Shown: positions 2,736-22,072, counted from the first letter of the stretch. The stretch is 64,000 bases of DNA from GCF_054482595.1 NZ_CM137008.1, one strand, 5' to 3'. Notes: a model not told the origin generated them from the letters alone. Made by a program: numbers and translations.

Positions 2736-4736
2736 TCATCCTTGTTGCTGAAGCATAGGGAATAATTGTTCGCACAGCAAAACACCGTTATTCATTGTTT
2801 CTACCCGTGCCTCGCTTTCTGTATTACGAAATTGTCCCAACACATGTGCCAGCCGATAAAAACCCACCGCGGTGAGGTCATTCGCCAGCAACTCTGCCTG
2901 ACCAATAGCACTCTGTTCCTGATAGCGCCAGCCGTTATGGAGCAGTTGAATAAGTAATGCCTGGCAGCGCATCAGCAACTGATGAGCAGTAGACGGCACA
3001 GGCAGAACGCTGGCAGAAGGTAGCGGTGCCACAGGCGCAGTTTCTGCGTCCAGCGCCCAGGCACGAGTCTTTGTCATCATTACCTGTGGTTCCAGTGTCA
3101 ATTGCCCATCAACAAAACTGACAAAGCCAGAAACCAGACACACGGGGTCGTCTGTTTGTTGCAAAAGCGCCGCCATGCGTTCAACGGCATAAGGCGCGCT
3201 GGCTGAGGCTGGCAGTGATAACGTCAGCTGATTATCTTCACCTTCGCCGCTGATTACCTGCGCATCCAGCGTTTGGCGGCTGCTATCCCAACCTAGTGAA
3301 ATACACTCAGCGACCGGCAGAATAAATAAGTTATCGACCTGATTAAGAGGCCGTATGCAGGCGGGGGGACGCTGGCGTAAATATTCCCGCAAAGCCACAA
3401 TGCCCGGCTGGCGCAACGGCGCGCTCAACATTTGCCAGGCATCTGGCGACAGTGGAACAACACTACTCAAGCGGTTACGGGTCGCGAACAGCAGTTCGCC
3501 TTCGGCACTGCGACGCGCTGCTTGTGAAACAATTTGCCCACCTGCCAGTGCGCCAGCCTGAAAACTAAACAGCCGACGTTTTGCCGCGGGAGCGTTTTCT
3601 TGTTCGCTTCTCGGCCAACTACGCGAAAGATGCAAAATACTGCCGGTGTCGGGATCGGTAAACCAGATGCGTAAACCATAATGCTCAATATCCTGCCAGC
3701 AACGCATACCTAAAGACACCAGCCGCAGATGATCAAGCTTTGCTTCTCCGGCAATGCCAGAGCCAACGACCGTGCGCCACGGCACAGGAGGAACTTCACC
3801 AACACTGTCGCGCCGGGCCATCTCTTGTGCGCAATTTAATCGACTGTTTAATGCCGCAAGCTGACGTAAGCATTCTCCGGCATGATAGTGGCTGGCGCGG
3901 GCGTGGAAGGCATCAACGCTGGCGCGCAGTTGCCGTAGCGATTCACTCACCCAGCGCCAGTTGCAGGCCTCTGCCGCCTGCAATGCGCGGTTGAAAGCGG
4001 CCTCGTAGTGAATAAGCGGCTGGCTGATGCCGCTCAGCCATAATGCCTGGCTTAGTTGTTGAACATATTGACGACACGTTTTGCCTTCTTCGCTGGCAAA
4101 CGGATCGTCAGATGATGTGACGTGTTCGCTGCGCATCTGCCAGATTAAATGAGTAAATTCCGCTTGCTGAGTTTTTGCCTGGACAAAGGCCTGTACTGCC
4201 AGTACGACATGTTCGCAAAGTGTGCCTTCAATACAATCACAACGGGCGAAACGAATGCTGCTACGGGAATAAAAACGCACATCGCTCATCGGTAAGCGGG
4301 CAGAGGGAATTTCGCCCGGCGTACAGAACAACTCAATGGTGATGCCTTTAGCGACCAGCGCCTGTGCGCGTTTGCGGGTGGTATCGGGCAGGGTAGCCAG
4401 TTCTTCCAGCCAGATTGCCGGATCCCACTCTTCTTCTTTTTCCGTGGGCTGGACGGTGGCACAAAGTCGTTGATAACTTAACACCAGCATCACGCGATGA
4501 CGGCACATGCCGCTGGCCCCGCAGCTGCACTGAGCCTCTTTCAGTGCCTGGCTGTTCGCCAGCTGGGTACGGACACCGTCACTGAAGGTGGCGATTAAAG
4601 CGCCGTTCTCATGGCTGATCTCCGGGACGTTGCCATTTTCCAGTTCCTTAAGACTGCGCTTAACAAAACCGGCATTGCTTAACGCTGTCAGGGCCTGCGG
4701 TGTCAGTTCTAATAATTCCGGACGTAGTGAATTCAT
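2736..4736 (-). CDS. yehQ: YehQ, SWIM zinc-finger protein (666 aa)
   Basis: Two CxC...CxH motifs (CSCGASGMCRHRVMLVL and CDCIEGTLCEHVVLAV); start ATG at 4734-4736 overlaps the yehP stop (ATGA). Confidence 0.8.
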   Translation of the reverse strand: MNSLRPELLELTPQALTALSNAGFVKRSLKELENGNVPEISHENGALIATFSDGVRTQLANSQALKEAQCSCGASGMCRHRVMLVLSYQRLCATVQPTEKEEEWDPAIWLEELATLPDTTRKRAQALVAKGITIELFCTPGEIPSARLPMSDVRFYSRSSIRFARCDCIEGTLCEHVVLAVQAFVQAKTQQAEFTHLIWQMRSEHVTSSDDPFASEEGKTCRQYVQQLSQALWLSGISQPLIHYEAAFNRALQAAEACNWRWVSESLRQLRASVDAFHARASHYHAGECLRQLAALNSRLNCAQEMARRDSVGEVPPVPWRTVVGSGIAGEAKLDHLRLVSLGMRCWQDIEHYGLRIWFTDPDTGSILHLSRSWPRSEQENAPAAKRRLFSFQAGALAGGQIVSQAARRSAEGELLFATRNRLSSVVPLSPDAWQMLSAPLRQPGIVALREYLRQRPPACIRPLNQVDNLFILPVAECISLGWDSSRQTLDAQVISGEGEDNQLTLSLPASASAPYAVERMAALLQQTDDPVCLVSGFVSFVDGQLTLEPQVMMTKTRAWALDAETAPVAPLPSASVLPVPSTAHQLLMRCQALLIQLLHNGWRYQEQSAIGQAELLANDLTAVGFYRLAHVLGQFRNTESEARVETMNNGVLLCEQLFPMLQQQG

Positions 4737-5869
4737 GACTGAAGATTCTCCGCAAGCCATGATGCCAGCTCGCCCGGTGTCATGGCGGCTATTTGTGCGC
4801 CGACATTTACCAGCACCTGGGCCGTATCGTGGTCATAGCAAGGTGTTGCGGTGCTATCGAGCGCCGCCAGTCCCAGCACTTTGATGCCGCTCTGGACACA
4901 CTTTTTCACCTGATGCGTCAGTAATGATGATGAACCCCCTTCGTAAAAATCGCTCACGAGGATAATGACGCTTTTCGCTGGTTGTTCAATAAGTTGCCGA
5001 CCATATTCCACGGCACTGGCGATATTGGTTCCGCCGCCTAATTGCACTTTCATTAATAACTCTACCGGATCGGCAACGTCTGCCGTGAGATCAACCACGC
5101 TGGTGTCAAACGCCACCAGATGGGTACGAATGCCGGGTAACTGCCATAAACAGGCCGCCATCACCGCAGAGTGGATCACCGAATCGACCATCGAGCCGCT
5201 TTGATCAACCAGTAAGACCAGTTGCCATTGTTCGCTTTGGCGTTTAATGCGGCTGTTAAAGCGGGGGGATTCGATATACAACTTGCCGTGTTGCGGGTGC
5301 CAGTGTTGCAGGTTGGCGCGCAGAGTACTTTTGAAATCAAAGTTTCGCGCCAGTGGAATAAATGAGCGGCGACGGCGATCGCGGACACCAGAAAAAGCCT
5401 GACGAACTTCCTTTGCCAGTCGAGCCATAATTTCTTCAACAACCTGGCGCACTATCCGGCGGGCGGCAGCCAGTACTTCGGGATTCATCAGATGTTTGGT
5501 GTGCAAAACGGCGCGTAGCAGGCTTTCAGAAGGCTGCATACGTTCCAGCACGTCGAGATTCGTCACCACATCTTCAATGCCATAGCGCAGTACGGCATCG
5601 CTTTCCAGCCGCTCAATCACCTGTTGCGGAAACAGCGTGTGAATACTGTTGATCCACTCAGGGGGGGTGAGATTTGAGCCACCTAATCCACCGGAGCGTT
5701 CACCACGCTGGAGCCGTTCAGGATCGCGCCCATACAGCCACTCCAGCGCGTGGTCTATCTGCCGGGCGTTGTCATCCAGCCCACAAAGCGTCGTTTCTGC
5801 CGCTTCGCCAAGAATTAATCGCCAGCGTTGTAGCTCACGGGTGGTCAGAAGATCGTTCAGTTCAGACAT
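4733..5869 (-). CDS. yehP: YehP, von Willebrand factor A (vWA) domain protein (378 aa)
   Basis: MIDAS-type motif LLVDQSGSM followed by ...GGGTNIASAV... and ...ILVSDFYEGG; start ATG 5867-5869 lies inside the yehM 3' end (8-nt overlap). Confidence 0.8.
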   Translation of the reverse strand: MSELNDLLTTRELQRWRLILGEAAETTLCGLDDNARQIDHALEWLYGRDPERLQRGERSGGLGGSNLTPPEWINSIHTLFPQQVIERLESDAVLRYGIEDVVTNLDVLERMQPSESLLRAVLHTKHLMNPEVLAAARRIVRQVVEEIMARLAKEVRQAFSGVRDRRRRSFIPLARNFDFKSTLRANLQHWHPQHGKLYIESPRFNSRIKRQSEQWQLVLLVDQSGSMVDSVIHSAVMAACLWQLPGIRTHLVAFDTSVVDLTADVADPVELLMKVQLGGGTNIASAVEYGRQLIEQPAKSVIILVSDFYEGGSSSLLTHQVKKCVQSGIKVLGLAALDSTATPCYDHDTAQVLVNVGAQIAAMTPGELASWLAENLQS

Positions 5870-8141
5870 GGAAAACTCCCCAGTTTTGCAGCGATGCCAG
5901 TGCCTGCTGTTCGAGTTGTTGATGATGTGCAATGGCTTGTGGTGGACAATGCAACGGCATTTGCAGCGCCGAAACGGGAAGTTGCGCCAGTTGATAATGC
6001 TCAAGCACCTGATGCGCCAGCGTCCCGCGTTCTCGTGGTGGTAGCCAGGCCATCGCCGCGCGTAAATCGGGCAGGGCATTGATAAAATTGGCATCACTCA
6101 GTTGATTTAAATGACTGCTGAAACCGGCGATAAATGCCGGCTGACAGGCCAGTTGATGACGGGCTAATGCCAGCAAACCGTGCAGCGCTTCGCCGGATTG
6201 TGCCGGGGATAACTGCGCCAGCATCGTCAGCGCCGCTTCGGCACTGGCGTTGGGATGTTCCAGACGCATCAGTGCGCCAAGAGCCGCGCCGCGATCCAGC
6301 GCCGGGGCATGGATTGCCTGACTGCGTCGCTCCAGTAAGGCTACCGCCGCAGAAAGAGAAATGCCGGGGAGCTGCACACCGCTATGCAGATCGCGCAGGA
6401 TATGACACAACGCTTGCCAGCTATGCAGGTGAGCGTGAAACTCCTTTTCATCCGGTCTGCCGTTGGATTCACACAGCCACAGCGTGCGATCGATAGCCGC
6501 GCATAACGTCGTTTGTAATATCTGCGCGCCTTGCATACCGCTAATTTCATCCAGCCGCCATAAGGCATATAGCACTTCCAGCGCCTGGCCCATTTCGGCA
6601 AATTGATTTTCCTGGGCTATTAATAATGTGAGTTGTTCCAGTAATTGTTGACTGAAGGACGCCAGACCCGCTAACGCTGCCTGGCTAAGACATGTGGTGA
6701 TACTGCCGATTCCACCCGCGTCCAGCATATCGGCTTCTAATTTATGGCGTGCGGCTTCCTGGAGTGTGGCACCAAAGCAGGCGGCCTCAATCAATGCCGC
6801 ATGCTGGCTAAGCGGGCGGGTTAATTTCCAGCGTTCTTCACCGTTGCCTGCAAGTGTCAGTGTGCTTCCCTGCTGGCGTACAATCCCTGGGATCTCCAGT
6901 ATTGCCAGCCGATGTAACACCTGACTTTGCGCTAGTCCATTGGGGTTAAAGCGATTTAAGGTAAGCTCCGCCGGAAGAGAGATTGCGGTACGTTCCAGTT
7001 CGCAGGTGACATCTTTTGGCAGAGGCGGTTGTGGCGTAGAAGGGGCAAGTTTACCGAATCCGTCACCCGCTAATGTGTCTATCAACGTTAGCAGAATCGG
7101 ATCGGTGTCGGGATGAATAACTCCGCGATAGCTCCACGGCAACGGCGCGTTCAGGGCTTCTTTAATCAGCGAGCCTGCTATGGCATCCAGCCAGTCAGTG
7201 CGTAACGGTAGTTTATGTCCGCGCAACTGTGCCAGCGCCATCGCATGCAGATGAGCGGCAGCCATATCCGCGGTCGAAGCAGGCAAGTGGTGTTGGCGCA
7301 AACGGGTAAGAACCGTTTTTAGCAGTTGTTCTCCCGCCTGCTGTAAGCCCCACTGCCAGCACCAGCTTTGCCAGACCGGGGCAGGCATTCCTGAAAGGTA
7401 TCCTGCCAGCACATCAAGGCGCTTTTCACTGTAGGGTGTGAGATAACAACCTGTAACGGCATCTGCCAGCGAGGGCAATTCTGGCTTGTTAATGTCCTGC
7501 GGGCATTCGCGCCACATTTTTGCCAGTGCCGGAGCGTGCCAGCCACCGCAGACGACTAACACGTCGCCATTATTTTGCTGCACCGCCCATGCAATCCAGC
7601 GAGCCATAAAGGCTTCGCGCTGACGATTGAGTGCATCGCCGGGGAAATCGCCCCGCAGTTGGGCAAAATAGTGCGCCAGTGCAGAGGGTAATGCAGTTTG
7701 CTGGCTTTCATCTTCGAACAAGTGATCCCACAGGGTATCGCTGTTATCCATGCGGGTGGCACGCAGCAGCAAGGTCTGGCTTTCCTCTTGCGTATCAGGC
7801 GAATCGTCCTCTTCTTCACTCTGTGCCCAGCAAGGCAAATCGATGAAGTAAGTTTGTGCCTGAATACGACGAGCGGCTTGTAGCGCCTGCCACTCCGGCG
7901 AAAATTCAGCAAATGGCGTCCAGGCACCACGCCCGGGGGCTGCACCGTCCTGATACTGGCAATAACTGTAAATAGCTACCGGAAGCTGGTGGGCTAAAAA
8001 CAGTTCGTCTACCCGGTCATTAAAATCAGCCGGGCCTTCAATCAACACGTATCGTGGCCGCTGGCTTTCGATTAACGATTTCACCAGCCGGGCGCAGGCC
8101 GGACTATGATGCCGGATGCCGACAATTAACGGCTCGCTCAT
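5862..8141 (-). CDS. yehM: YehM, large uncharacterized protein (759 aa)
   Basis: Long ORF trimmed to MSEPLIVGIRHH (ATG at 8139-8141), 10 nt downstream of the yehL stop; no motif I can assign with confidence. Confidence 0.75.
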   Translation of the reverse strand: MSEPLIVGIRHHSPACARLVKSLIESQRPRYVLIEGPADFNDRVDELFLAHQLPVAIYSYCQYQDGAAPGRGAWTPFAEFSPEWQALQAARRIQAQTYFIDLPCWAQSEEEDDSPDTQEESQTLLLRATRMDNSDTLWDHLFEDESQQTALPSALAHYFAQLRGDFPGDALNRQREAFMARWIAWAVQQNNGDVLVVCGGWHAPALAKMWRECPQDINKPELPSLADAVTGCYLTPYSEKRLDVLAGYLSGMPAPVWQSWCWQWGLQQAGEQLLKTVLTRLRQHHLPASTADMAAAHLHAMALAQLRGHKLPLRTDWLDAIAGSLIKEALNAPLPWSYRGVIHPDTDPILLTLIDTLAGDGFGKLAPSTPQPPLPKDVTCELERTAISLPAELTLNRFNPNGLAQSQVLHRLAILEIPGIVRQQGSTLTLAGNGEERWKLTRPLSQHAALIEAACFGATLQEAARHKLEADMLDAGGIGSITTCLSQAALAGLASFSQQLLEQLTLLIAQENQFAEMGQALEVLYALWRLDEISGMQGAQILQTTLCAAIDRTLWLCESNGRPDEKEFHAHLHSWQALCHILRDLHSGVQLPGISLSAAVALLERRSQAIHAPALDRGAALGALMRLEHPNASAEAALTMLAQLSPAQSGEALHGLLALARHQLACQPAFIAGFSSHLNQLSDANFINALPDLRAAMAWLPPRERGTLAHQVLEHYQLAQLPVSALQMPLHCPPQAIAHHQQLEQQALASLQNWGVFHV

Positions 8142-8151
8142 GCATCTTTCC

Positions 8152-9349: not shown

Positions 9350-9388
9350 ATAAAAAAACCTGCTGGTGAGGCAGGTTCTTTTATTTAC
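9350..9388. terminator. Bidirectional intrinsic-terminator-like hairpin, unit A; candidate 3' end of an antisense sRNA
   Basis: aaaaaaa-cctgc-tggtgag-gcagg-ttcttttattt: GC stem flanked by an A-run on one side and a T-run on the other. Confidence 0.5.
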
Positions 9389-9672
9389 TATTTTCAGGCC
9401 TAACACCACAGCCTGTGCAACATCGTGTTCCAACGAACGAATTATAACCACGGCTGGACCCCGTTGCAATTAAGATAATGAGATTTATAATCCAGACCGT
9501 TGGGACGTTGCGCCGGATCGAACCTATTTCAAGTCCTGGCTACCGGACGGGTGGTGCTTCAGGTGGTGCCCTGAGCCGGAGTGCAACATCGTGGTCCAAC
9601 ATACGTAAACCAGTATTGACAGGCAGTGTAAGGGTAAGGTGCTGGTGTTGCGCTCCTTAATAAGGAGAGCGG

Positions 9673-9762: not shown

Positions 9763-9783
9763 CGGGCAAATTGAAACGCATCT

Positions 9784-9959: not shown

Positions 9960-9998
9960 ATAAAAAAACCTGCTGGTGAGGCAGGTTCTTTTATTTAC
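9960..9998. terminator. Bidirectional intrinsic-terminator-like hairpin, unit B
   Basis: Same sequence as 9350-9388. Confidence 0.5.
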
Positions 9999-10280
9999 TA
10001 CAGTGACGCTAACTTGCTGATTGTGCAACATTTCGTACCAACGAATAAATTATAACCATATCCACACTCCATTGCAATTCAGTGAGTGAGATTTATAATC
10101 CTGCCCGTTGGGAGGTTGTGCCGGATCGGACCAATTTTAAGTCCTGGCTGCCGGACGGGTGGTGCCGCAGGCGGTGCCCTGATCCGGAGAGCAACGTTTC
10201 GTACCAACATACGTAAACCAGTATCGACAGGCAGTGTAAGGGTAAGGTGCTGGTGTTGCGCTCCTTAATAAGGAGAGCGG

Positions 10281-10858: not shown

Positions 10859-13800
10859 TTAATGGAAAATGACGTCAGGTGCGCTTAACGCCTCACTCAA
10901 ATTAAACACATCAAGTTCGGCAAAAGTGACGGATTTATTGTCACGGTACACTCGAAGAGAACGGAAGCTCATTAACGCTTTGCTATCAACATTGTAGTGG
11001 TTAAAACCGGGTGAAAACTTAAGGACCAGCCGGTACTCGCCCAGGTCATAGACAAATGCATCCTCATAGCCTGACTCCCAGCCTTTGTATCGCATTCCCA
11101 TAAGCTGCCCAACGGTAGCGGATTTACCTTCCCAGCGAGTCAGGCTGTTACTGGTTGACTCGTCAGGTGTGAGCAGCACCGTGCGCCGCGCCAACTGGCG
11201 AAAAGGCGGCATAATTTCGTAATCGGCAAAAAGCTGTGCAAATTCACTGCGCATTTCTACTGTCATTTCTAACGGGTGGGCAATGCCAATCAGAGCGTCC
11301 GCAGGCAGGTCAATTGGCTCATCTTGCGCATTGCAGAACTCCCCCTCTGCGGCCACACGAAAGGCGTTGAGTAAACAACGCGGTTCATTTGCCGGATAAG
11401 CCCCCCATATTAATCGCTGGGTAACCAGACGGGTAAAGGGATGATTAACAAACAGAGAATGAAAATCTGCCAGCGACCAGCGTCGGGTGGTACGTAGGGC
11501 CGTTTCAAGACGCGGGAGCAGGTTTTTGCTCACCTGAGTAGCATCTTTTTTTAGCCCTTTTAGTCGGGCCAGTGCCTCGGGCGCTTTCAGTTGATCGTCA
11601 TCGGCACGCAACCGGGGAACACTTTTCTGGCGAACGTTTTGTTGATCAAAGATAACCGGGTTGAGGTTTTCATCGAAGCGAACGGTAAACTGCCGGGGAC
11701 CAAAATCAAAAATCAACGCCTGCGGATCATCAAGACCTAGTGTTGGGACTAATCTGTCCGCTAACTCTTCCTGGCTTAGCCCGCGATTTTCTGCGACCAC
11801 CTGAAGAAATTCCGCTGCGTTTTCACGTAATGAAGAGGATTTCGCCCGTTGTGATACATGATGCAGCTGTATCAGCGCCATATCATTATTCATCAAGGTA
11901 AGTATATTCAGACCAATGACAGCACGGGCAGATTTGCCTTCTTGTGGCCAGGCGAGGATCTGTGTCGTCAGATCCCGAGCCGTGCTTTCGTCACCAAAGA
12001 GACTTAACGCCAGAAATGCCCAGTTGTCTTTTGCGGGGGCACCAGCTTGTTGCCACGCAGTGAAGAGATCCCAGGCAAAAGCGGCCAGCGTTTGTGGCTG
12101 GCAAAACGTTTTCAGTTGTTCCAGACCGCTATAAAAACGTCCGCCCTGGGTAAAGCGCAGCATTTCGCCGATAATTTCCAGAGCGTCATCGGTAACAGGC
12201 TGATTATTAGTGATAAGTCGCGGCCTGGACCACATTGCCGGATGCCAGAAATCAGGGGCTTTTGGAATGCGTGCCGGGTAAATGTCCATTGGACCCTGTT
12301 TCAGTAAATGCTCCAGGGCAGGCCATACATCTGTACGCTGCCAGCGGTTTGCCACGGTTTGCAGCAATTCACCATGTCCCTGTTCGTAAAGTAAACGCAG
12401 GGCAAGTAATGCAGCTTCGCTATTATCGCTGGATTTGGTGAAGACAAGAGGGATAAGTGCAGTAGCCGTATGTTCCGGCCAATGTAAAATCCACTGGCGA
12501 GCCAGATCACGCTGCACCGCGAAACGTCGCCAGACGCGGGCAACGGGCAGGGCCAGTTCTGTTGCGCCAAAATTTAAAATTAACGGAAATGTTTCTTTTG
12601 GACGATGTAAAAAAGCCAACATCAGACCTGGTAGCGCATCCAACCCGAGGATACTGAGAAAATAGTCCTCACCCGCGAACAGATGTTTTTTCTCATTGAT
12701 ACGCAGCCAGAAGGTCAAAGCCATCTCACGCGGCAACTGTGCCAATAAATACAGGTTCCAGACACTCTTTTCCGGACGATAACGTGAGTAGTTGTCATTT
12801 TCCCATATGTTAATTAACGCTTCTATGTGACCGCTGCGGAGCGCCTGTTCTGCTAATTGTGCTTCCGGGGAGTTCCAGCCATTCAGGATCTCTTCAACCC
12901 GCCCCTGGTAGTAATGCCACTGAACAATGAGTGAATTGCGTGCAGCATCCAGTTTTCCGGGGAGTATATAATTCAGAAACAGCCATACATCATCCCCAAA
13001 ACCCAGTTCCTGTAATACAACTCGCCCACTTTTTTGTTCCATGCGTTCCGCAAGAGATTCCGTGCTGAAATAACGGGCAGACTCAGTGGAGGCAAGCCAC
13101 TCTTGTTCGCCTGGTTGCCAGTAAACTTGCGGGGTTAATTCGAGCGGTGCCAAATCAAGACGTGGAGCTGTCATTTTTTTCTTACTACGCCACGGTGGTG
13201 AAACGAGGATTTCAGGCAGATTGCTGTTATCGGTGCCATCAATAACCGGTTTGGGCGGTGCCAATAAATAACTATTCAGTACTGCCCGGGCTTGAGTACT
13301 TAACCACTGCATCACCTCTTCTGCCAGTTGTGGCTGCGATGCCATCAGCGTTTGTAACAGCGTACGCCAGTATTCATCGCGTGCTTTTTGCTGGGCAGGC
13401 AGCTTTTTGTCTTCGATGATTGGATAACCAAGGCGGGCTGGTGGTTCTTTTAACGCCAGCAGTTCTGCCAGTGCCGCGAGCGTCGCGTGGGGGAAGTTTT
13501 TACTGTATTTAGCCACACGTTGCAGGCTGGGTTTGTTTTTATCAGCCACCAGTAGCAAGGTGTGGATGACCTGCGGATGGTTAATTTGTACCAACAGACT
13601 GCCGCAATCTTCTTTATGGGCATACATCGCGAGGCGCGGAATGGCTGCCAGTCCTTGTTCGCGCAAAAGGGCGGCGCAGGCCGCGTAGCCGAAGTGGTTT
13701 TTTTGTGACATGTAGCTGGCTTCGCGATCGCTAAATACGTCCAGGCCCCAGTATCGTTCGAGTTTTTTTACCGCCGTATTATCAGTAGCAACGACCTTTA

Positions 13801-14491
13801 ACCACTCCTTTGAATGGAGACTTGACCGGGAGCTTTCAAGACTGGCGAGTTCATTGGCTATTTCAGGCTTTTCCGGGAGGATCAGCGCAATAAAAGGACG
13901 GCGAATTTTGGGTATTCCTGGCAGTGCGGCAATGAGTTTATCGGCACAACGCTGCCAGCAACTTTCCTCTGCCAGCGACAGATGCTTACGCAAACGGAGA
14001 TCGAAATCGTTATAGGTCGCGGAGCCATAACCGTAGCCATAGTCCTCGTCCTGATACTGCAAAGTGACGACCAGTGAATCACTCTCATAACGCCGCGCAA
14101 TGCACTGACGCGCCATCACTACATCCGTCGCATATTCCAGCCCCTCTTGTTGGACGATTTCGTCGAGCAACTGTTGGCTGTCATTTTGCGCGATACAGGC
14201 TAGCGCCGCCATTGTCCGGGCCGGGATTGAGGGTTTGTGTTCGCCGATCAAGTTGATGGCCTGCGTGATGGCGGACTGCCACTCCAGTGAAAAATTTTCA
14301 TAACGCCAGACAATGTTTTTTTTCTTCTCAGCTTTTTGTAGCAATTCATCACCCAGTGTCTGAATGATGCTTTCAGTGATAACAGGCACTGGTTCGCCCG
14401 GCCAATTGCGATGGCTGAGTGGTGTTTTACCCTTTTTATATTTCAGTTCCAGTTGGGCGTTATCAGCCAGCCACGGTAATTCCTTGTCCAT
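10859..14491 (-). CDS. yehI: YehI, giant DUF4132-type protein (1210 aa); paralogue lacking the N-terminal WGR-like domain
   Basis: Aligns with the two upstream paralogues from the LPWLAD(N/D)AQ motif onward; conserved C-terminal block (RLxPxLGLDD...FGPRQFTV..FDE.L.P); RBS aaggaaagag upstream. Confidence 0.8.
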   Translation of the reverse strand: MDKELPWLADNAQLELKYKKGKTPLSHRNWPGEPVPVITESIIQTLGDELLQKAEKKKNIVWRYENFSLEWQSAITQAINLIGEHKPSIPARTMAALACIAQNDSQQLLDEIVQQEGLEYATDVVMARQCIARRYESDSLVVTLQYQDEDYGYGYGSATYNDFDLRLRKHLSLAEESCWQRCADKLIAALPGIPKIRRPFIALILPEKPEIANELASLESSRSSLHSKEWLKVVATDNTAVKKLERYWGLDVFSDREASYMSQKNHFGYAACAALLREQGLAAIPRLAMYAHKEDCGSLLVQINHPQVIHTLLLVADKNKPSLQRVAKYSKNFPHATLAALAELLALKEPPARLGYPIIEDKKLPAQQKARDEYWRTLLQTLMASQPQLAEEVMQWLSTQARAVLNSYLLAPPKPVIDGTDNSNLPEILVSPPWRSKKKMTAPRLDLAPLELTPQVYWQPGEQEWLASTESARYFSTESLAERMEQKSGRVVLQELGFGDDVWLFLNYILPGKLDAARNSLIVQWHYYQGRVEEILNGWNSPEAQLAEQALRSGHIEALINIWENDNYSRYRPEKSVWNLYLLAQLPREMALTFWLRINEKKHLFAGEDYFLSILGLDALPGLMLAFLHRPKETFPLILNFGATELALPVARVWRRFAVQRDLARQWILHWPEHTATALIPLVFTKSSDNSEAALLALRLLYEQGHGELLQTVANRWQRTDVWPALEHLLKQGPMDIYPARIPKAPDFWHPAMWSRPRLITNNQPVTDDALEIIGEMLRFTQGGRFYSGLEQLKTFCQPQTLAAFAWDLFTAWQQAGAPAKDNWAFLALSLFGDESTARDLTTQILAWPQEGKSARAVIGLNILTLMNNDMALIQLHHVSQRAKSSSLRENAAEFLQVVAENRGLSQEELADRLVPTLGLDDPQALIFDFGPRQFTVRFDENLNPVIFDQQNVRQKSVPRLRADDDQLKAPEALARLKGLKKDATQVSKNLLPRLETALRTTRRWSLADFHSLFVNHPFTRLVTQRLIWGAYPANEPRCLLNAFRVAAEGEFCNAQDEPIDLPADALIGIAHPLEMTVEMRSEFAQLFADYEIMPPFRQLARRTVLLTPDESTSNSLTRWEGKSATVGQLMGMRYKGWESGYEDAFVYDLGEYRLVLKFSPGFNHYNVDSKALMSFRSLRVYRDNKSVTFAELDVFNLSEALSAPDVIFH

Positions 14492-14500
14492 GCTCTTTCC

Positions 14501-17500
14501 TTATTCAAACAGGGCTTCAATATCGTTAATTAGCTCGCTGGCGGTGATGGCATCGAGTACGGAGAGCTGCGCTTCCTGTGTTGAATTACTCCCCCAGCCA
14601 TAGCTTTCCGCTTTGCCTTCCCATAGCCACTGCTTGCTTAAGAGTTGCTCGGCACTCAGTTCGGCTGGCGACATGCCTACCGCAAAGCCTTCATCGATTT
14701 CCATGATTAACGACCAGCGGCCCAGAGGTTTGATCATCCAGCCGATCCAGCCTCCATCCTGTGGTTCGCCCTTTATCCAGCCTTTATTCGCCAGCCCCAT
14801 TACCCGACCGCTCGGGCATTTTCTGCCTGCCCAGCGGGTCAGTTCGCTGGCATTGCGCTCGGTTTCTGTCAGGGCGTAACTGTTACGGTCGAGCTGGCGG
14901 AACGGCGGTAGCAGTTCGTAGTCGGCAAAAAGCTGCCCAAATGCGGCGGCATCCGTCGGTGATATTTCCAGAACGTGAGGAATACCAACAGAGATATCGC
15001 CTTCCGGCAGGGTGAAAAGATCATCGTCAGCGGTGCTGTAGCTGTTATCTTCCGCTACCCGGAAACAGGCCAGTAGCTGGTTTTCGGCGCTATAAACGCC
15101 CCAAATCAGACGGCGGGTTAAGTGGCGAACTAGCGGATGCTCAACCAGGAAGAGCTGAAAGTTATCCGGTGACCAGCGGCGACGCAGGCACATGGCGGAT
15201 TCCAGCCTTGCTACCTGCTGGGCGGCGACGGTACGCGCATCTTTTTTCAGCAGTTTGTAGCGGTTAACAGCATCGTTCGCCTGTGATTCATCATCGCTTT
15301 TGTTTGGTTTGGGCAGGTCTTTCAGACGGCTGCCAGAAACATCACGCACAAACGGTTTTAAGGTTTCATCAAAGCTGACGGTGAACTGGCGTGAGCCGAA
15401 ATCCAGCAGCAACGAACCGTTATCATCCAGACCGAGATCCGGTGCTAACCGATCTTCAAGCTCTGCCACCGTGAGTTCGCGGCTTTCGGCAATGTCGGCA
15501 ATTTTTTCTTTTGCCCGCTCCTGTAATGCTTTGAATTTCAGTTTCTGGGCAATACCGTTAAGCTGCATCAGGGCGATATCACTACCGATAGCGGCGAGAA
15601 TATCCAACCCAACGGTGGCGCGTTTATGCTGGGATTCACCAGGCCAGGCGCGTATTAATGGCGTCAGTTTGCGGGCGGTGTCATCGTTACCAAGAACGCC
15701 TAACGCAGTGAACGCCCAACTCTCTTTCGACGGTGCGCCCGCAGTCAGCCAGGCGGTAAACAGATCCCAGGCAAATTCAGCCAGTGAGTCGGCGGTACAG
15801 GCATCTTTCACCTGCAATAATCCCGGATACAGGGCCTCTTCCTGAGGGAAGCGGAGCATTTCACCGAGGTGCTGGAGTGCGCTATCTGGCAGTGATTGGG
15901 CGTTTGTATTTAATACCGGGCGCGTCCAGAGCGATGGCTGATAAAAGGCCGGAAGAGTGGGGATTTTTGTCGGGTGATTATCTAAGGGATCGAGCGCAAG
16001 CAGAGCGTTCACCGCGTCGGTTACTTCCGGCTGGTTATAACGCCGGGCGATTTCTTGCAGTAATGGCTGATGACCGTTTTCGGTAAGCATACGTAAGGCA
16101 GCGCGAGCGTTATCTTGTGCTTCACCGGCTTTGCCGAGCGCCGAAGGCAGCAGGCCGGTTATGGCGTGTTCCGGGTATTTTAGCAGCCAGCTACGGGCGT
16201 CTTGTCGTAGGGTTTTGAGTTTGTTGAAGGCGCGGGCAATGAATGGAGCCAATTCGACAGCCGCGAAATATTGTGCCACGGGAAGAGCTTCCTGCGGATA
16301 GCGAGATGCTGAGTGGATAAAACCTGTTAAACCAGCAAGTCGAAGATGCAACATTACTTGTTTTTCACCTGTATGTGGTTCTTTACTAAGGATATTCCAC
16401 ATCTCAATAGCTTTATTTATGGGTAAAACATGGAGTGAAGAAAGCTTCCATTCGCCCTGATAAGGGGCGTTATAGGACTTAAAAGCATCGATCAAAGTTA
16501 AATAATCTTCACGCTGCCAAGCATCCAACGCTATTTCTGGAATATCAATATAGCCTCTATGTTTGTTCCAATCCCAGCGGTCGAATCCCAGGGAATTCAG
16601 AAAACCTTTTTCTCCCTCTGCTTGCTGACGAGGTTGCCAATTATGCTGCACTTGTAGTCTTTTGCTTTTTGTTTCATTTATTGTACAGAAAGATTCCAGG
16701 GGTAATGGTGCTAAATCCAGCACTGGAGTCGGCGATTTTTTCTTTTTAGCCTGCCACGGCGGTGAGACTAATACGGCAGGCAGCATATCGGCGTTCGCAT
16801 AAACTGAAGGTTGTGTCAGTTGTTGCTGGCATGACTTAAGAACGGTAACTGTCGGGGCAGATAGCCAGGAGATCACCCGTTCTACTAATGTTGGTTGTGA
16901 GATAAGCATCGTCATTAGCATCATGCGCCAGCGCTTTTCATCTTTTTGTGCCAGAAGTTCTGCTAATGCCGCCAGCGCTGCATGTGGAAAGCGAACGAAA
17001 GCCTTTGTCATGCGATCGTGGCAACGCTTTCCCTGCTCACTTGCATGGATAAGTAGTGTAAGTGCTTGCGGGTGGTTGATATGCATCAACACTTCCCCAC
17101 ATGTGTCACCAGCAGCGTAAGGGGCAAAACGGGCCAACGCAGCGACACCTTGCTCCTTGAGTACTGTCGCACACCAGATTTTACCGCCGTAATAATCATC
17201 AAATACCTGCCCTGGCTGTCCTGGATAGTATTTCCCCAGTTCTGCCAATACCTGCTCGTCGGTGGTCGTCAGTTTTAGCCATTCCAGCGCATATACCCCT
17301 TTTTGTCCGCAAAGATGTCTGGCAATCTCATGAGCTACTTCTGGTTTTTCCGGCAACAATAGTGCGACCAGCGGCTGGTTCCAGGCGGGCATGTTTCCGA
17401 GAGCGGCAATCAGTTTGTCGGCGCAGCGCTGCCATACATCGTCATTTGCAAGTGAGAGATGCTTACGCAGGCGCATTTCAACCGAAGCGAAGCGTGACAG

Positions 17501-18259
17501 ATAGTCAGGCTGCTTGTTATCCGGGGTAAAAGTAATGAGGTGGGCATCATAATTCCAGTCAAATCGGATGAATTGCAATGCGATGACAACCTCAGTGGCA
17601 TATTCCAGACCACCTTCCTGGACAATTTGATCCATTAACTCTTCGTGATCGTTACGATTGAAGCCTTGCTCCAGCGCAACCAGTACCGCCAGAACCATCG
17701 GTAGTAGTGTGGTGCTAATCGGCGAGTCGATAAGGCCCACTGCTTGTGTAATCGCCTGCTGCCAGTCCAGTGAACAGGTGCTGTAATCGAAGGTGATCAC
17801 CTTTTTAAAACGCCGGTGAGTATTCGCGGAGACGGAGCGTAGCAGGGTTAATTCATTCTCCTTTGGCACAGGATCGCCAGGCCAGCGTCGATGACTTAGT
17901 GTGGTTGGCGCAACCTCTGTCGGTAAAATGATTTGGGCGTCGTCTGCCAGCCAGGGGAGGTGGTCTCCAGTCAATGCTGGTTTGTCTTGTGGCAAAGGGG
18001 CTATTTCAGGGCATTCGATAACCTGGGTGGGTACAGATGTCGGTGTCATCACGGATACTTCTTCTACGTAGCCCTTTTTTGTTTTCTCCGCAATCAGCTT
18101 CAGTTCCGCTTTTTCCGCCGCCGCAGCATCTGCAAAGCTTTTTACCTGACTTTGCCCGTTAGTGCCGACTTTACCCCAGGTTATATGCAGCTCGTTTCTC
18201 TGCTGCTCCACCGCCCAGAATTTATGTGATTTTTCGTCCTGATAAATATAGGTTTTCAT
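14501..18259 (-). CDS. Giant WGR-domain / DUF4132-type protein (1252 aa), MolR/YehH-like paralogue
   Basis: N-terminal MKTYIYQDEKSHKFWAVEQQRNELHITWGKVGTNGQ (WGR-like); N-terminal and C-terminal segments are near-identical at DNA level to the 1266-aa paralogue; RBS aagga upstream. Confidence 0.8.
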   Translation of the reverse strand: MKTYIYQDEKSHKFWAVEQQRNELHITWGKVGTNGQSQVKSFADAAAAEKAELKLIAEKTKKGYVEEVSVMTPTSVPTQVIECPEIAPLPQDKPALTGDHLPWLADDAQIILPTEVAPTTLSHRRWPGDPVPKENELTLLRSVSANTHRRFKKVITFDYSTCSLDWQQAITQAVGLIDSPISTTLLPMVLAVLVALEQGFNRNDHEELMDQIVQEGGLEYATEVVIALQFIRFDWNYDAHLITFTPDNKQPDYLSRFASVEMRLRKHLSLANDDVWQRCADKLIAALGNMPAWNQPLVALLLPEKPEVAHEIARHLCGQKGVYALEWLKLTTTDEQVLAELGKYYPGQPGQVFDDYYGGKIWCATVLKEQGVAALARFAPYAAGDTCGEVLMHINHPQALTLLIHASEQGKRCHDRMTKAFVRFPHAALAALAELLAQKDEKRWRMMLMTMLISQPTLVERVISWLSAPTVTVLKSCQQQLTQPSVYANADMLPAVLVSPPWQAKKKKSPTPVLDLAPLPLESFCTINETKSKRLQVQHNWQPRQQAEGEKGFLNSLGFDRWDWNKHRGYIDIPEIALDAWQREDYLTLIDAFKSYNAPYQGEWKLSSLHVLPINKAIEMWNILSKEPHTGEKQVMLHLRLAGLTGFIHSASRYPQEALPVAQYFAAVELAPFIARAFNKLKTLRQDARSWLLKYPEHAITGLLPSALGKAGEAQDNARAALRMLTENGHQPLLQEIARRYNQPEVTDAVNALLALDPLDNHPTKIPTLPAFYQPSLWTRPVLNTNAQSLPDSALQHLGEMLRFPQEEALYPGLLQVKDACTADSLAEFAWDLFTAWLTAGAPSKESWAFTALGVLGNDDTARKLTPLIRAWPGESQHKRATVGLDILAAIGSDIALMQLNGIAQKLKFKALQERAKEKIADIAESRELTVAELEDRLAPDLGLDDNGSLLLDFGSRQFTVSFDETLKPFVRDVSGSRLKDLPKPNKSDDESQANDAVNRYKLLKKDARTVAAQQVARLESAMCLRRRWSPDNFQLFLVEHPLVRHLTRRLIWGVYSAENQLLACFRVAEDNSYSTADDDLFTLPEGDISVGIPHVLEISPTDAAAFGQLFADYELLPPFRQLDRNSYALTETERNASELTRWAGRKCPSGRVMGLANKGWIKGEPQDGGWIGWMIKPLGRWSLIMEIDEGFAVGMSPAELSAEQLLSKQWLWEGKAESYGWGSNSTQEAQLSVLDAITASELINDIEALFE

Positions 18260-18271
18260 TGTTAAATCCTT

Positions 18272-21200
18272 TTAATCAAACAGTGATTCAATGTCGTTAA
18301 TCAGCTCGCTGGCGGTGATGTCGTCGAGCATGGAGAAAGTGGGTGAGGATTGTTTACCATAGCGATCATAAGGGGCGGTGATTTTTACGCTTTCGACAGG
18401 CAGCAGGTCGCTATACCCCGTTTCGCCATAAATTAATGAAAAAGGTTCTGTTTCAAGTTCGAGAGCACCATAAGGGGTAGATTTGCGCATCGCATAGACG
18501 CTGCCGCTTTCTTCCAGACGTTGCCAGCCTCTGCGTTCCAGCCCGACAATGCGTCCGGCCTGGCAGAGACGTCCGTTCCAGCGTGACAATTCATGGACAT
18601 TACGTTCGTTATCAGCAAGGTGGTAACTACCACGTTCGAGCTGTTGGAAAGGGGGAAGCAGTTCGTAATCAACGTAAATTTGCCTGAATGCAGCGGCGGA
18701 TTCAGGGGGGATTTCCAGCACATGCGGTATACCGATGTTTCCTGCTGGCAGCGTGAATAACTCATCCTGCGCATCGCTGTAAGTGCTGTCTTCTGCCACG
18801 CGAAAACAGGTGATAAGAGCGTTTTCATCGTTATAAACCCCCCATAACAGCCGTCGGGTTAAGTGACGTACCAGCGGATGCTCCACCAGAAACAGGCGGA
18901 ACTGCTCTGCCGTCCAGCGTCTGCGCTGGCACATAGCCTGTTCCAGACGGGTAATTTGCTGGCTGGCGATAGCACGAACATCTTTTTTCAACTGTTTGAA
19001 GAGATTAACTGCGTCAGTTGCCAGTGTTTTATCATCGCTCTGGTTTGGCTTAGGTAAATCTTTCAGGACTTTGCCGTTTGCATCGCACACTACAGGTTTT
19101 AAGGTTTCGTCAAAACCAACGGTGAATTTGCGGGGGCCGAAATCCAGTATCAGCGAGCCACTGCTATCAAGCCCTAAATCCGGTGCCAGGCGATCTTCCA
19201 GTTCGGCCATTGTCAGTCCGCGATTTTCGGCGACCATATTGATTCTGTCGCTGGCATTTTCCTGTAATGCAACGAATTTAATCTTTTGCGCAATGCCATT
19301 AAGCAACATAAGCGCAATGTCGCTACCGATACTGGCTAACACATCCAGCCCGTAAACCGCGCGTTTATGCTGGGATTCACCCGGCCAGGCGCGGATGAGC
19401 GGGGTTAGTTTACGCGCGGTGTCGTCATTGCCTAGAATCCCCAGCGAGGTAAATGCCCAGTTCTCTTTTGCGGGTGCGCCTGCTTCTGTCCATGCCGTGT
19501 AGAGATCCCAGCCAAAGTCAGCCAGTGATTCGCGGGTGAAGGTCTCTTTGATGATCGCCAGCCCAGCGTAGGAGGTAATGTCGCGTGGAAAGCTCAACAT
19601 TGTGCCGAGGTGGCGCATAGCGTCATCTGGCAGAGGCAGGTTGTTACTTTTAAGCCGAGGTCTGCGCCATAAGGTGAACTGATAAAAGCCGGGCAGTGGG
19701 GCGATTTTTGCAGGATATTCTTCCAGTGGGGCGCTATCAAATAATGTTGCCAGCGCAGATAAAACATCAGGTTGATTATATCCTTGGGCGATTTCCTCAA
19801 TCGTTTCTCGCTGGTTTAATTTCACTAGCAGGAGGAGTGCCTGGCGGGCATATTCCCGATTTTGGCACGGTTTGCCCAGCGCCAAAGGCAGTAGCCCGGC
19901 GGCGGCATGGCGCGGGTTATTTGCCAGCCAATTAACGGCATCCTTGTAAGCTATTTTTTTCTGTAACCGCTGCGCCATTGGTAAGGCTAGTTCACTGGCT
20001 CCAATAAAAAGGGTGAATATCCACAGGCGTTGATGATCTCGTTGCAAGCAGGTCATAAACGCAGGAATGGCCGTACTACCAAAAACCGCCAGAATCTCTT
20101 TCTCACCTGAATATCGCTCCTCAATGATTATTTGGTTGAGAAATGAAATCGCCTGTTGTCCCGGTAAGTAACAAAGCGCAGATAGATTCCAGCTTTTGTT
20201 GGCATTGTTGTGATATTTCGCAAACTCAGCTTTTAGTGCTGGAAAATCAAAGCGCAACAAGGCATCAACAGCGCTTTGCGGTATATATTTTTTTTCATGT
20301 AAGTCATTTTCGCAATGCAGCCATTCATTAAAACCTAATTGCCAAAGGATTTGTTGTTCTGGTGTAAAAGGAATGAAAGATGTCTCCCAGCTTTCTTTTT
20401 CAATTAGTGGCAGAACGGTAAATAAGGTTTGCTGTGATGCCTGATATTGCGCAATTTCACTGAATCTGGATATGTCAGTATGACTGATTAACTCTGTAAT
20501 TCCTGGTGTGATATCCGTGACGGCAGGAATGGGAAGTACCGGTAAATCAAATACGGGTATGACATTCTTTTTCTTATTTATTACCCACGGTGGAGCGACA
20601 AGCAGCTCCGGCAACATATCCACAGTGGCATATTCACATTCTTCAGCTACTGGCAGCGGACGACATTCAGATAAGATGCCTGCCGCCTTAGCATTAACCC
20701 AGGGAATGACCTCGCATACTAACTCTGGCGTGGCGGTAATCAGTTTGACAAGCGCTTTACGCCACTCATTATTTTCATGTATTGCCAGCAAAGTAGCATA
20801 AGCGGCAATAGCCGCAGCGGGATGTTTTTGGCAGGCTTTGCTTAAGTATTCCAGGTGCTTTTTCTTGCCATTTACACCGAGGATCAGAATTTGAATCGCA
20901 TCCGGGTGATTCGTTTTCCATAGCCATTTGACAAGATCTTCAGCATTGGCGTGTATGTGAGTGAAAAGGTCCGTGTATTTTACGGGATAGTCGACAGGTA
21001 GCTTGAGAAGAATCCGGCTTACACCACGCATTCCATTATTTGCCAGCAACGTAGCCAGATATTTGCGGAAATCATTATATAGCGGTGGGAAACCATATTT
21101 TTCCTGGATGGCCAGGGCAACATCATCGCTTACCATCATACTTAACCAGGTCATCGCCGGAACGTTTTGGTCTGCATAACGTAGCGCCATAGCATTGGCA

Positions 21201-22072
21201 ATATCCGGGCATTCGGGGAGCAGTAACGCCGCAAAAGGTTGCCGTGCTGGGGATAGCGTCGGAATGGCGGCGAGTACTTTATCTACACAGCGTTGCCACT
21301 CATCTTCTGAAGCGAGTGAAAGATGATGACATAGACGTTGATGCCAACTCGGCAGCGATTCTGCTTTGTGATTAGGTGGAATGATGGTGGTTACTGCGCC
21401 TTTTACTGGTTTATATCTAAGTTGAAGAGCGAGAAGGGCAATTTCAACGGCACTTTCCAGACCACAGCGAATGACTAAGTCATCGACCAGTTCATCTGCA
21501 GAGTAAGAGTTCCAGAAACTCCAGAGCAATGCTGCATCAGATTGTGCACTCCCTGTCTGTTGATTACCCTGAACTCGCATTTGTAACTCAGCAAAAGCCT
21601 GCTGCCAGTTTTCTGGATAAGAACGGTAATTGTTGGCGGGATCATATGCCCTGGTGTTATTCGCGATGAGCTGCCATATTTGACCATCTTTGTGCAGATA
21701 ATTGATCTCTCTGGGGCGAGAGCGATGAGGAAAAGCAAATCGATTAATATCGTCAGTTAGCCGAATGACCGCATCATCAGCCAGCCAGGGGCGTTGGTTT
21801 TTACTCTCAGGGGAAGTTTCAACTTCAGGAGTGGCTTTGGTAATGGGGGGGATATGCACGTTTGCTGAAGCATTTTCCACATAGCCTTTTTTCGTTTTCT
21901 CTGCGATCAGCTTAAGCTCCGCTTTTGCCGCTGCCGCAGCATCCGCAAAACTTTTTATCTGGCTTTGCCCGTTAGTGCCGACTTTGCCCCAGTTGATATG
22001 CAGCTCGTTTCCCTGCTGCTCAACCGCCCAGAATTTATGTGATTTTTCGTCCTGATAGATAAAGTGTCTCAT
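18272..22072 (-). CDS. molR: Giant WGR-domain / DUF4132-type protein (1266 aa), MolR-like (misnamed molybdate metabolism regulator)
   Basis: N-terminal MRHFIYQDEKSHKFWAVEQQGNELHINWGKVGTNGQ; position next to metG matches recalled K-12 molR, where it is a pseudogene. Confidence 0.75.
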   Translation of the reverse strand: MRHFIYQDEKSHKFWAVEQQGNELHINWGKVGTNGQSQIKSFADAAAAAKAELKLIAEKTKKGYVENASANVHIPPITKATPEVETSPESKNQRPWLADDAVIRLTDDINRFAFPHRSRPREINYLHKDGQIWQLIANNTRAYDPANNYRSYPENWQQAFAELQMRVQGNQQTGSAQSDAALLWSFWNSYSADELVDDLVIRCGLESAVEIALLALQLRYKPVKGAVTTIIPPNHKAESLPSWHQRLCHHLSLASEDEWQRCVDKVLAAIPTLSPARQPFAALLLPECPDIANAMALRYADQNVPAMTWLSMMVSDDVALAIQEKYGFPPLYNDFRKYLATLLANNGMRGVSRILLKLPVDYPVKYTDLFTHIHANAEDLVKWLWKTNHPDAIQILILGVNGKKKHLEYLSKACQKHPAAAIAAYATLLAIHENNEWRKALVKLITATPELVCEVIPWVNAKAAGILSECRPLPVAEECEYATVDMLPELLVAPPWVINKKKNVIPVFDLPVLPIPAVTDITPGITELISHTDISRFSEIAQYQASQQTLFTVLPLIEKESWETSFIPFTPEQQILWQLGFNEWLHCENDLHEKKYIPQSAVDALLRFDFPALKAEFAKYHNNANKSWNLSALCYLPGQQAISFLNQIIIEERYSGEKEILAVFGSTAIPAFMTCLQRDHQRLWIFTLFIGASELALPMAQRLQKKIAYKDAVNWLANNPRHAAAGLLPLALGKPCQNREYARQALLLLVKLNQRETIEEIAQGYNQPDVLSALATLFDSAPLEEYPAKIAPLPGFYQFTLWRRPRLKSNNLPLPDDAMRHLGTMLSFPRDITSYAGLAIIKETFTRESLADFGWDLYTAWTEAGAPAKENWAFTSLGILGNDDTARKLTPLIRAWPGESQHKRAVYGLDVLASIGSDIALMLLNGIAQKIKFVALQENASDRINMVAENRGLTMAELEDRLAPDLGLDSSGSLILDFGPRKFTVGFDETLKPVVCDANGKVLKDLPKPNQSDDKTLATDAVNLFKQLKKDVRAIASQQITRLEQAMCQRRRWTAEQFRLFLVEHPLVRHLTRRLLWGVYNDENALITCFRVAEDSTYSDAQDELFTLPAGNIGIPHVLEIPPESAAAFRQIYVDYELLPPFQQLERGSYHLADNERNVHELSRWNGRLCQAGRIVGLERRGWQRLEESGSVYAMRKSTPYGALELETEPFSLIYGETGYSDLLPVESVKITAPYDRYGKQSSPTFSMLDDITASELINDIESLFD

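Follow-up and report, generated by a model that had tools for sequence, protein, structure and literature searches.

The window analysed here is a 64,000-nucleotide stretch of the Escherichia coli chromosome (GCF_054482595.1, NZ_CM137008.1), of which positions 2,736 to 22,072 form a 19.3-kb block of eight genes, 100% identical to strain W619 and several further strains. The block encodes a MoxR-class ATPase (YehL), a DUF5682 protein (YehM), a vWA protein (YehP), a SWIM zinc-finger protein (YehQ), three giant paralogues that share a DUF4132 region (YehI, a molR-like protein and one between them, the middle paralogue) and the small protein YehK. Homologues of yehL, yehM, yehP and yehQ are accompanied by DUF4132 genes in several bacterial phyla. 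The best-supported statement about the giants is that they are conserved partners of a five-component YehL-type machine, and they are probably its clients. We therefore read the block as one ancestral cassette composed of a giant (WGR)-solenoid-DUF4132 protein, YehL, YehM, YehP and YehQ, in which the giants serve as clients of the MoxR/vWA machine, an interpretation to which we give slightly better than even odds (about 0.55). An earlier interpretation of the same DNA, hereafter the original prediction, had described a unidirectional block that links an ATPase/vWA/SWIM operon, a duplicated toxin locus and a triad of giant paralogues; it is partly supported by the results presented here.

All genes, domains and the toxin locus of the block have been annotated before, and the YehL subfamily has been named. 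As far as the tools used here can tell, the cross-phylum linkage, the likeness of YehM to TIKI/TraB proteins and the insertion history of zor-orz and yehK are new. We found in the searchable literature no functional study of DUF4132, DUF5682 or yehL-Q, and no description of the five-gene cassette. The block comprises eight "y-genes", or about 19 kb of the best-studied bacterium, whose orphan annotations can now be read together as one system of five components, open to test, with candidates for client, motor, adaptor and hydrolase. Its study can start from SOS induction and from strains that have every gene intact; strain K-12 may have shown no phenotype because molR and yehQ are pseudogenes there.

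Linkage of yehLMPQ and DUF4132 genes across phyla

Homologues of YehM were collected by an alignment scan of one genome per species (GTDB r220). The best 80 loci were kept with 10-kb flanks, and their open reading frames (ORFs) were annotated with hidden Markov models iterated from the window proteins. YehL and YehM homologues are found in all 80 loci, YehP homologues in 78 and YehQ homologues in 76. DUF4132-type ORFs are present in 74 loci; in 64 of the 80, yehL is preceded on the same strand by such an ORF whose end is under 400 bp away, and the gap is usually some tens of base pairs. The fetched DNA holds one DUF4132 copy in 39 loci, two in 12, three in 21, and four or five in 2. Three of the six remaining loci (L036, L040 and L045) end at yehL or at most 0.7 kb from it, so that the upstream region is not visible; in the other three (L029, L037 and L051), some 8 kb or more is available upstream and contains no DUF4132 ORF. 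A yehLMPQ-type operon, then, essentially always brings DUF4132 partners, and DUF4132 genes can also sit elsewhere.

The loci come from Enterobacterales, Burkholderiales, Neisseriales, Xanthomonadales, Myxococcota, Actinomycetota and Acidobacteriota (a metagenome-assembled genome of Thermoanaerobaculia), that is, from at least four phyla, which is the outcome of phylogenetic profiling of yehLMPQ against molR/yehI that the original prediction required. The linkage is kept when the gene order is permuted: the DUF4132 gene lies downstream of yehQ in two Burkholderia loci, is divergently oriented in Labilithrix, and separates yehM from yehP on a conjugative plasmid of Sinorhizobium. Such permuted, and yet linked, gene orders favour function rather than shared descent as the explanation of the association. 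Taken with the adjacency in 74 of 80 loci, they strongly support, at the level of genome comparison, the functional coupling of yehLMPQ with the giant WGR/DUF4132 proteins that the original prediction had put forward. There is no sixth gene family conserved around the five-gene cassette in the 80 loci. A reverse sample, in which nine DUF4132 proteins were taken regardless of their context, includes four whose genes adjoin AAA_5, DUF5682 and VWA_CoxE genes, and one that belongs to an array of at least six paralogues.

A variant core is seen in MT835988.1, a human gut record labelled "UNVERIFIED Bacteriophage sp." (L093 253-12724), where AAA_5, DUF5682 and VWA_CoxE genes are followed by an MgsA-type AAA gene, a gene for a 1207-aa DUF5717 protein and DUF5716_C, with neither DUF4132 nor SWIM. 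Judging by this arrangement, MoxR, DUF5682 and vWA may form a modular triad that can be combined with giant partners of more than one kind.

Protein components of the cassette

The molR-like and middle paralogues consist of a WGR domain (Pfam, 1.5e-18), about 850 unannotated residues, and DUF4132; YehI has DUF4132 only. The giants had been described as proteins of nucleic-acid-binding type, which holds for the WGR domain only and does not extend to YehI. All are helical solenoids whose N-terminal half varies and whose C-terminal module is conserved: among 40 homologues, conservation is 0.13-0.47, with insertions and deletions, over the N-terminal ~600 residues, and 0.5-0.74 over the C-terminal ~600. 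The C-terminal module, a family of 8,740 representatives at 50% identity, has invariant His, Asp, Tyr and Glu residues (H256, H311, D329 and E331 in alignment A10) and a conserved C-terminal helix ("...TASEL...") with an invariant Glu. A profile search of PDB with the giants retrieved matches to the WGR domain only (2ra8 at 1.2e-21 and the PARP3 WGR at 3.5e-3), and Pfam detected no alternative N-terminal domains in the homologues that have no WGR. Two of the yeh paralogues thus resemble PARP-type WGR proteins in starting with this domain, and differ from them in that there is no PARP catalytic domain and the WGR is fused to the solenoid and DUF4132. The longest array that we observed, in GCA_044456955.1 (L098 3379-23192), consists of six or more DUF4132 paralogues in tandem, each about 1100 aa long, and the fetched DNA stops before its end and before any MoxR operon.

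YehM matches Pfam DUF5682 (1.4e-98). Its N-terminal domain shares the α/β fold of the TIKI/TraB/ChaN/EreA hydrolase superfamily, and is followed by a helical C-terminal extension of about 500 residues. The fold relatives, with their figures as listed, are ChaN (9.7), HopBA1 (8.6), EreA-like "succinoglycan biosynthesis" proteins (8.1 and 7.5), EreC (7.1), Pasteurella toxin (6.7) and RRSP (6.6); effector toxins, namely HopBA1, RRSP and PMT, are among them. The protein has a GxxH/Glu/GxxH pattern made of G8xxH11, E35 and G199xxH202. Residues G8, H11 and E35 are invariant both in an alignment of 35 full-length sequences and in one of 23 N-terminal domains, and G199, G200 and H202 do not vary among the full-length sequences and reach at least 90% conservation among the N-terminal domains. 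E. coli YbaP (TraB/GumN) has a counterpart with similar spacing, G38xxH41, E67 and G249xxH252, the correspondence being judged by inspection, with no alignment tool.

Sequence-level tests of this relationship are negative. Pfam gives no TraB, ChaN or esterase match in YehM; the profile of the N-terminal domain has no match in PDB at E<=10; hhalign of the same domain with the YbaP/TraB alignment, a shallow one whose sequences are at least 65% identical to YbaP, gives a probability of 0.8%; and a Foldseek search of PDB with the whole YehM model is dominated by helical-repeat noise, with nothing at E<=0.001. For this reason we treat the label of TIKI/TraB-like hydrolase as a supported inference from structure and not as membership. 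Apart from having no sequence-profile similarity to the TIKI/TraB/PrgY/GumN/ChaN/erythromycin-esterase superfamily, YehM is set apart from it by the long helical extension and by being always found within a MoxR/vWA cassette.

YehL matches Pfam AAA_5 (1.8e-33), has the Walker A motif GEPGTAKS (residues 83-90) and, where Walker B is expected, the residues FEE, and is a MoxR-class AAA+ ATPase. Its nearest neighbours in NCBIfam are the GvpN and MadB-type assembly ATPases, and there is a weak match to Pfam bpMoxR (7.9e-3). YehL has given its name to one of seven MoxR subfamilies, of which it is an uncharacterised member (PMC3893208). YehP matches VWA_CoxE (1.5e-71) and has an intact MIDAS motif (metal-ion-dependent adhesion site; DQSGS, residues 222-226). 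The ATPase gene stands next to that of this vWA protein, as in MoxR/vWA systems. The FSscan paper names yehP 36 times in connection with +1 ribosomal frameshift hotspots (PMC2790909). The Pfam match of YehQ to SWIM is weak (residues 56-88, E=1.1e-3), and the CxCx5CxH residues C70, C72, C78 and H80 are invariant in 25 homologues; a PDB sequence-profile search with YehQ found no match. The domain assignments proposed earlier for the ATPase/vWA/SWIM operon are borne out by these Pfam matches and by the invariant Cys and His residues.

In characterised MoxR/vWA pairs, the client is bound at an acidic patch by the MIDAS of the vWA protein and remodelled by the AAA+ ring; NorQD needs its MIDAS to bind the client and not to bind the ATPase (PMC9976466). 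The cassette resembles these pairs (NorQ-NorD, CbbQ-CbbO, CoxD-CoxE and RavA-ViaA) in having an AAA_5 ATPase gene beside a gene for a MIDAS-intact vWA protein, and a presumptive client encoded in the same operon. Unlike them, it includes two extra conserved parts, the TIKI/TraB-like DUF5682 protein and the SWIM protein; its presumptive clients are giant solenoid proteins, in 1-6 diverging paralogues, and no metabolic enzyme; and, by a literature listing, the E. coli array is SOS-controlled.

Regulation, proposed mechanism and alternative explanations

A CTG-N10-CAG box with an AT-rich spacer (CTGTAATTTTATCCAG) precedes the start codon of the molR-like gene by 10 bp, and is identical in five E. 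coli lineages, K-12, O157:H7, MS8345, A20 and the window strain. A published list of LexA-regulated genes with a known SOS box includes molR (PMC6590174), and the candidate box at the head of the array corresponds to it, the regulation by LexA being taken from that list. In K-12 molR is a pseudogene, and SOS studies in that strain therefore induce a dead gene. Depletion of DdrO, the radiation-response repressor of Deinococcus radiodurans, strongly derepresses a gene with WGR and another with DUF4132 in this species (PMC8533742).

By analogy with the characterised pairs NorQ-NorD and CbbQ-CbbO, we infer the following binding partners, ligand, catalytic activity and biological output. A hexamer of YehL, with YehP as MIDAS adaptor, would bind and remodel the giant DUF4132 proteins through their conserved C-terminal module of about 600 residues. 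The variable N-terminal solenoid halves, together with WGR where it is present, would recognise a ligand, for which nucleic acid that is damaged or foreign is the most plausible candidate; WGR, the SOS box and the findings in Deinococcus all point to DNA, either damaged or foreign, as the cue. YehM would supply a TIKI/TraB-like hydrolase activity, YehQ may be a zinc-finger adaptor, and several paralogous "sensor/client" proteins would share a single motor. As the molR SOS box heads the array in E. coli, the clients would be induced there by DNA damage. If the cassette does sense damaged or foreign DNA, it would represent a new architecture in bacterial stress or immune pathways, and a bacterial role of WGR outside PARPs.

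Several observations weigh against this proposal. Four of the nine DUF4132 genes in the reverse sample are solo. The C-terminal domain of DUF4132 has no recognisable solved relative, so that the activity could reside in it. WGR is missing from YehI and from many actinobacterial homologues, which weakens a general model of nucleic-acid sensing. We found no LexA-type box, of either the gamma-proteobacterial or the actinobacterial consensus, upstream of the arrays of the 80 loci outside E. coli, where the first array gene often ran off the fetched sequence; the SOS link is therefore not generalisable beyond E. coli. In E. coli the cassette is often partly pseudogenised, and may for this reason be dispensable.

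The original prediction had likened the locus to a defence or conflict island, and the cassette could indeed be dedicated to anti-phage or anti-plasmid immunity, with diversifying solenoid/WGR paralogues as sensors of invaders, MoxR-vWA as the threshold switch that has been proposed for ternary conflict systems, and YehM as a proteolytic effector that brings about growth arrest or abortive infection. A number of features speak for such a role, which we nevertheless consider rather doubtful. Horizontal transfer is suggested by the patchy distribution of the cassette over phyla and by its having no conserved neighbours, and YehM homologues occur on 29 plasmid records from bacteria other than E. 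coli (Rhizobium, Streptomyces, Agrobacterium, Methylosinus and others). A mobilizable Iodobacter plasmid of 76.7 kb carries all of the cassette, with two DUF4132 genes, between insertion sequence elements and a type I restriction-modification system, with an integrase nearby; on the Sinorhizobium plasmid pBSY16_2 (L092 23-2744), its neighbours are DUF1963, SMI1/KNR4 and DUF6389 genes, families typical of polymorphic-toxin immunity clusters. The paralogue arrays reach at least six tandem copies, their N-terminal halves are mosaic and fast-evolving, inactivation has recurred independently, and two toxin-antitoxin loci have been inserted into the cassette independently of each other (see below). 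H-NS binds the yehL/yehM region, and both genes rise in an hns/stpA mutant (PMC3686432). The presence of effector toxins among the fold relatives of YehM, and the use of MoxR-vWA pairs as switches in conflict systems (PMC7159879), would also fit. Set against this, none of the eight proteins matches any PADLOC-DB v2 family at E<=0.01; a scan of NCBIfam with the same proteins yields nothing specific, and domain scans reveal no canonical effector domain (nuclease, TIR or pore-former). The yehLMPQ operon is near-universal in E. coli at a fixed site between core genes, with 95-99% identity, and all genes are under purifying selection, the ratio of nonsynonymous to synonymous substitution rates (dN/dS) being below 0.3. 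The cassette is essentially absent from phage records, the single match being the unverified gut contig with the variant core. Thus, the absence of PADLOC matches and the core status of the locus speak against an island of this kind, and plasmid copies, allelic mosaicism and recurrent pseudogenes are compatible with a conflict or DNA-stress role.

The nearest described parallel is provided by the MoxR-vWA ternary conflict systems (vWA-MoxR-VMAP and iSTAND; Kaur, Burroughs, Iyer & Aravind 2020), which have a CoxD/CoxE-type MoxR-vWA pair with large variable components and, like the yeh cassette, a patchy distribution enriched in Actinomycetota and Myxococcota. Unlike them, the yeh cassette has no VMAP, iSTAND/STAND nucleoside triphosphatase, beta-propeller or listed effector domain, and the survey of these systems in eLife does not mention SWIM, WGR or Yeh proteins (PMC7159879). 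We tentatively entertain the possibility that the cassette belongs to an unrecognised class of MoxR-vWA-gated surveillance systems, where diversifying solenoid receptors, some of them with PARP-like WGR sensors of DNA ends, would be loaded or unlocked by YehL/YehP and act through the TIKI-like protease YehM and the SWIM adaptor on damaged or invading DNA. Such a class might be wired to SOS in E. coli and have a sister flavour with DUF5717/DUF5716 instead of DUF4132/SWIM.

Housekeeping maturation, similar to that carried out by CoxD-CoxE, NorQ-NorD or MoxR proper, would have YehL and YehP insert a metal or cofactor into, or assemble, DUF4132 or another enzyme. Every characterised non-conflict MoxR/vWA pair is a maturation factor with the client encoded adjacently (PMC3893208; PMC9976466), and YehP belongs to the VWA_CoxE family just as YehL is nearest to assembly ATPases; the historical name "molybdate metabolism regulator" would hint at a metal link, the invariant H256, H311, D329 and E331 of DUF4132 could bind a metal, and haem-binding ChaN is a fold relative of YehM. 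This explanation is nonetheless improbable, as the cassette has no conserved neighbour that is a metabolic or redox enzyme, and rapidly diverging client paralogues, strain mosaicism and frequent pseudogenes are atypical of cofactor insertion. SOS control and WGR, moreover, point to DNA and not to metabolism, and in Deinococcus the WGR/DUF4132 genes showed no co-variation with the molybdate genes (PMC8533742). It is very improbable that the adjacency means nothing in E. coli, with the locus a decaying relic whose halves are independent transcription units that share ancestry and orientation. The 1.2 kb and two minus-strand small-RNA terminators between yehK and yehL would agree with a relic, as would the different inactivation of yehQ, yehM, yehK or a paralogue in each of K-12, O157:H7, MS8345 and A20, and the toleration of a blaCTX-M-15 transposon in the DUF4132 region by a sublineage of sequence type 131 (PMC9334617). 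However, the linkage is kept across phyla and permuted gene orders, all eight ORFs are intact in the window, dN/dS of every gene is well below 1, and full-length YehM clusters far outnumber truncated ones. An ancestral cassette in which the giants are clients of the YehL/YehP machine remains the reading that we prefer.

Layout, insertions and variation of the E. coli locus

In the window, all eight genes are intact ORFs, and the ORF list and RefSeq annotation agree on gene content (Table 1). Transcription proceeds in the order molR-like, middle paralogue, yehI, yehK, gap, yehL, yehM, yehP, yehQ. The locus is flanked by core genes, metG, which comes next at 22213 after the molR-like gene, and yehR/btsSR. 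The spacers within yehQPML are -4, -8 and +10 bp, and those between yehK, yehI, the middle and the molR-like genes are 61, 9 and 12 bp. All eight genes are thus on the minus strand, as the original prediction had it, but its short spacers do not extend to the yehL-yehK gap, which measures 1239 bp and contains both toxin units; these had been taken for the only plus-strand elements of the block, which is true of the toxin ORFs but not of their OrzO/OrzP RNAs, encoded on the minus strand.

Table 1. Positions of genes, RNAs and the candidate SOS box in the window
Feature	Position	Strand	Basis
yehQ, SWIM zinc-finger protein, 666 aa, last cassette gene	2736..4736	-	ORF list, annotation
yehP, CoxE-type vWA protein, 378 aa	4733..5869	-	ORF list, annotation, Pfam
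yehM, DUF5682 protein, 759 aa	5862..8141	-	ORF list, annotation
yehL, MoxR-class AAA+ ATPase, 362 aa	8152..9240	-	ORF list, annotation, Pfam
OrzO/P-type antitoxin small RNA, copy 1	9352..9427	-	Rfam RF02083, 99.9 bits
zorO/zorP-type type I toxin ORF, copy 1, 29 aa	9674..9763	+	sequence reading
OrzO/P-type antitoxin small RNA, copy 2	9962..10035	-	Rfam RF02083, 88.8 bits
zorO/zorP-type type I toxin ORF, copy 2, 29 aa	10281..10370	+	sequence reading
yehK, 105 aa	10480..10797	-	annotation
yehI, helical solenoid + DUF4132, 1210 aa, paralogue nearest yehL	10859..14491	-	ORF list, annotation
Middle paralogue, WGR + solenoid + DUF4132, 1252 aa	14501..18259	-	ORF list, domain scans
molR-like paralogue, WGR + solenoid + DUF4132, 1266 aa, first gene of the array	18272..22072	-	ORF list, domain scans
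Candidate CTG-N10-CAG LexA (SOS) box	22083..22098	none	sequence CTGTAATTTTATCCAG on plus strand

Among 5426 complete E. coli genomes, yehLMPQ is found at >=80% coverage in 5202 (96%), with 95-99% identity, and the whole 19-kb arrangement in 493 only. The allele of the middle paralogue seen in the window has >=80% coverage in 689 of these genomes, and most match its 3' half only. In pairwise comparison with the window, the number of paralogues in K-12, O157:H7, MS8345 and A20 is two or three, and that of zor-orz units ranges from none to two. The middle paralogue is hypervariable between strains in its N-terminal half (~16350-18050), which is either unalignable or about 75% identical, and the molR-like gene has 88-91% nucleotide identity between strains, versus 95-97% for yehLMPQ. 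RefSeq/PGAP annotates the middle paralogue as two pseudogene fragments, a call that we reject because the 1252-aa ORF is intact (window 14501-18259, equal to L001 16766-20524); it is probably an artefact of the novelty of the allele, as the part left unannotated (~16600-17865) coincides with the hypervariable half.

Values of dN/dS are at most 0.02 for metG, 0.06-0.10 for yehL and yehP, 0.10-0.16 for yehM and yehQ, and 0.17-0.29 for the paralogues, and no gene comes near 1. The paralogues also have raised values of the synonymous rate dS, which reach 0.66 and indicate that their alleles are old and recombine. Inactivating mutations affect molR and yehQ in K-12 (yehQ at L082 2170-4170), yehM (L083 4364-6643) and two paralogues in O157:H7, yehM (L084 4831-7103) and yehK, by a frameshift, in MS8345, and yehQ and yehM (L085 1695-7103) as well as yehK, again by a frameshift, in A20. 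The clusters of full-length YehM sequences have 14,594 and 4,681 members, versus a few hundred to ~1,100 in the truncated ones.

The yehL-yehK gap is occupied by two copies of a repeat, each with a hydrophobic plus-strand ORF that encodes MD(S/T)LTQKLTVLIAVLELLVALLRLIDLLK (29 aa) and, upstream on the opposite strand, an OrzO-P small RNA that scores above the Rfam gathering score of 60; this is, twice, the composition of a type I zor-orz locus. In each copy there are, besides, promoter-like hexamers that diverge and overlap, as well as a terminator hairpin, which lies at 9357-9377 in copy 1. Such units were first described as z3289/z3290 at the same position, between yehI and yehL, by Fozo et al. 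2010, and are absent from K-12, whose intergenic region measures 0.3 kb (PMC2887945). The window agrees with zorO-orzO/zorP-orzP of O157:H7 in position, tandem duplication, 29-aa toxins and OrzO-P small RNAs; the locus as such was already known, and what we add is its insertion into an otherwise contiguous conserved cassette. A zor-orz unit is found at >=80% coverage in 3393 complete E. coli genomes.

YehK, whose gene stands between the array and the toxin repeats, has no match in Pfam, NCBIfam or PADLOC, and is encoded in 2 of the 80 loci, both from Escherichia. Like yehK, zor-orz is restricted to Escherichia loci, and elsewhere the operon is contiguous. By this comparison, zor-orz and yehK represent a later, Escherichia-specific insertion that split the ancestral operon. 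We considered both as possible components of the system and rejected them as lineage-restricted, and the original prediction is not supported where it made the type I toxin locus part of the architecture. Both orz terminators are oriented like the operon, and for this reason the E. coli cassette is probably divided today into two transcription units, with yehLMPQ behind the terminators. In a soil metagenome contig (L087 20367-21051), a type II toxin-antitoxin pair with RelE and helix-turn-helix proteins is located between the vWA and SWIM genes, and is a second, independent insertion of a toxin-antitoxin locus into the cassette, besides zor-orz.

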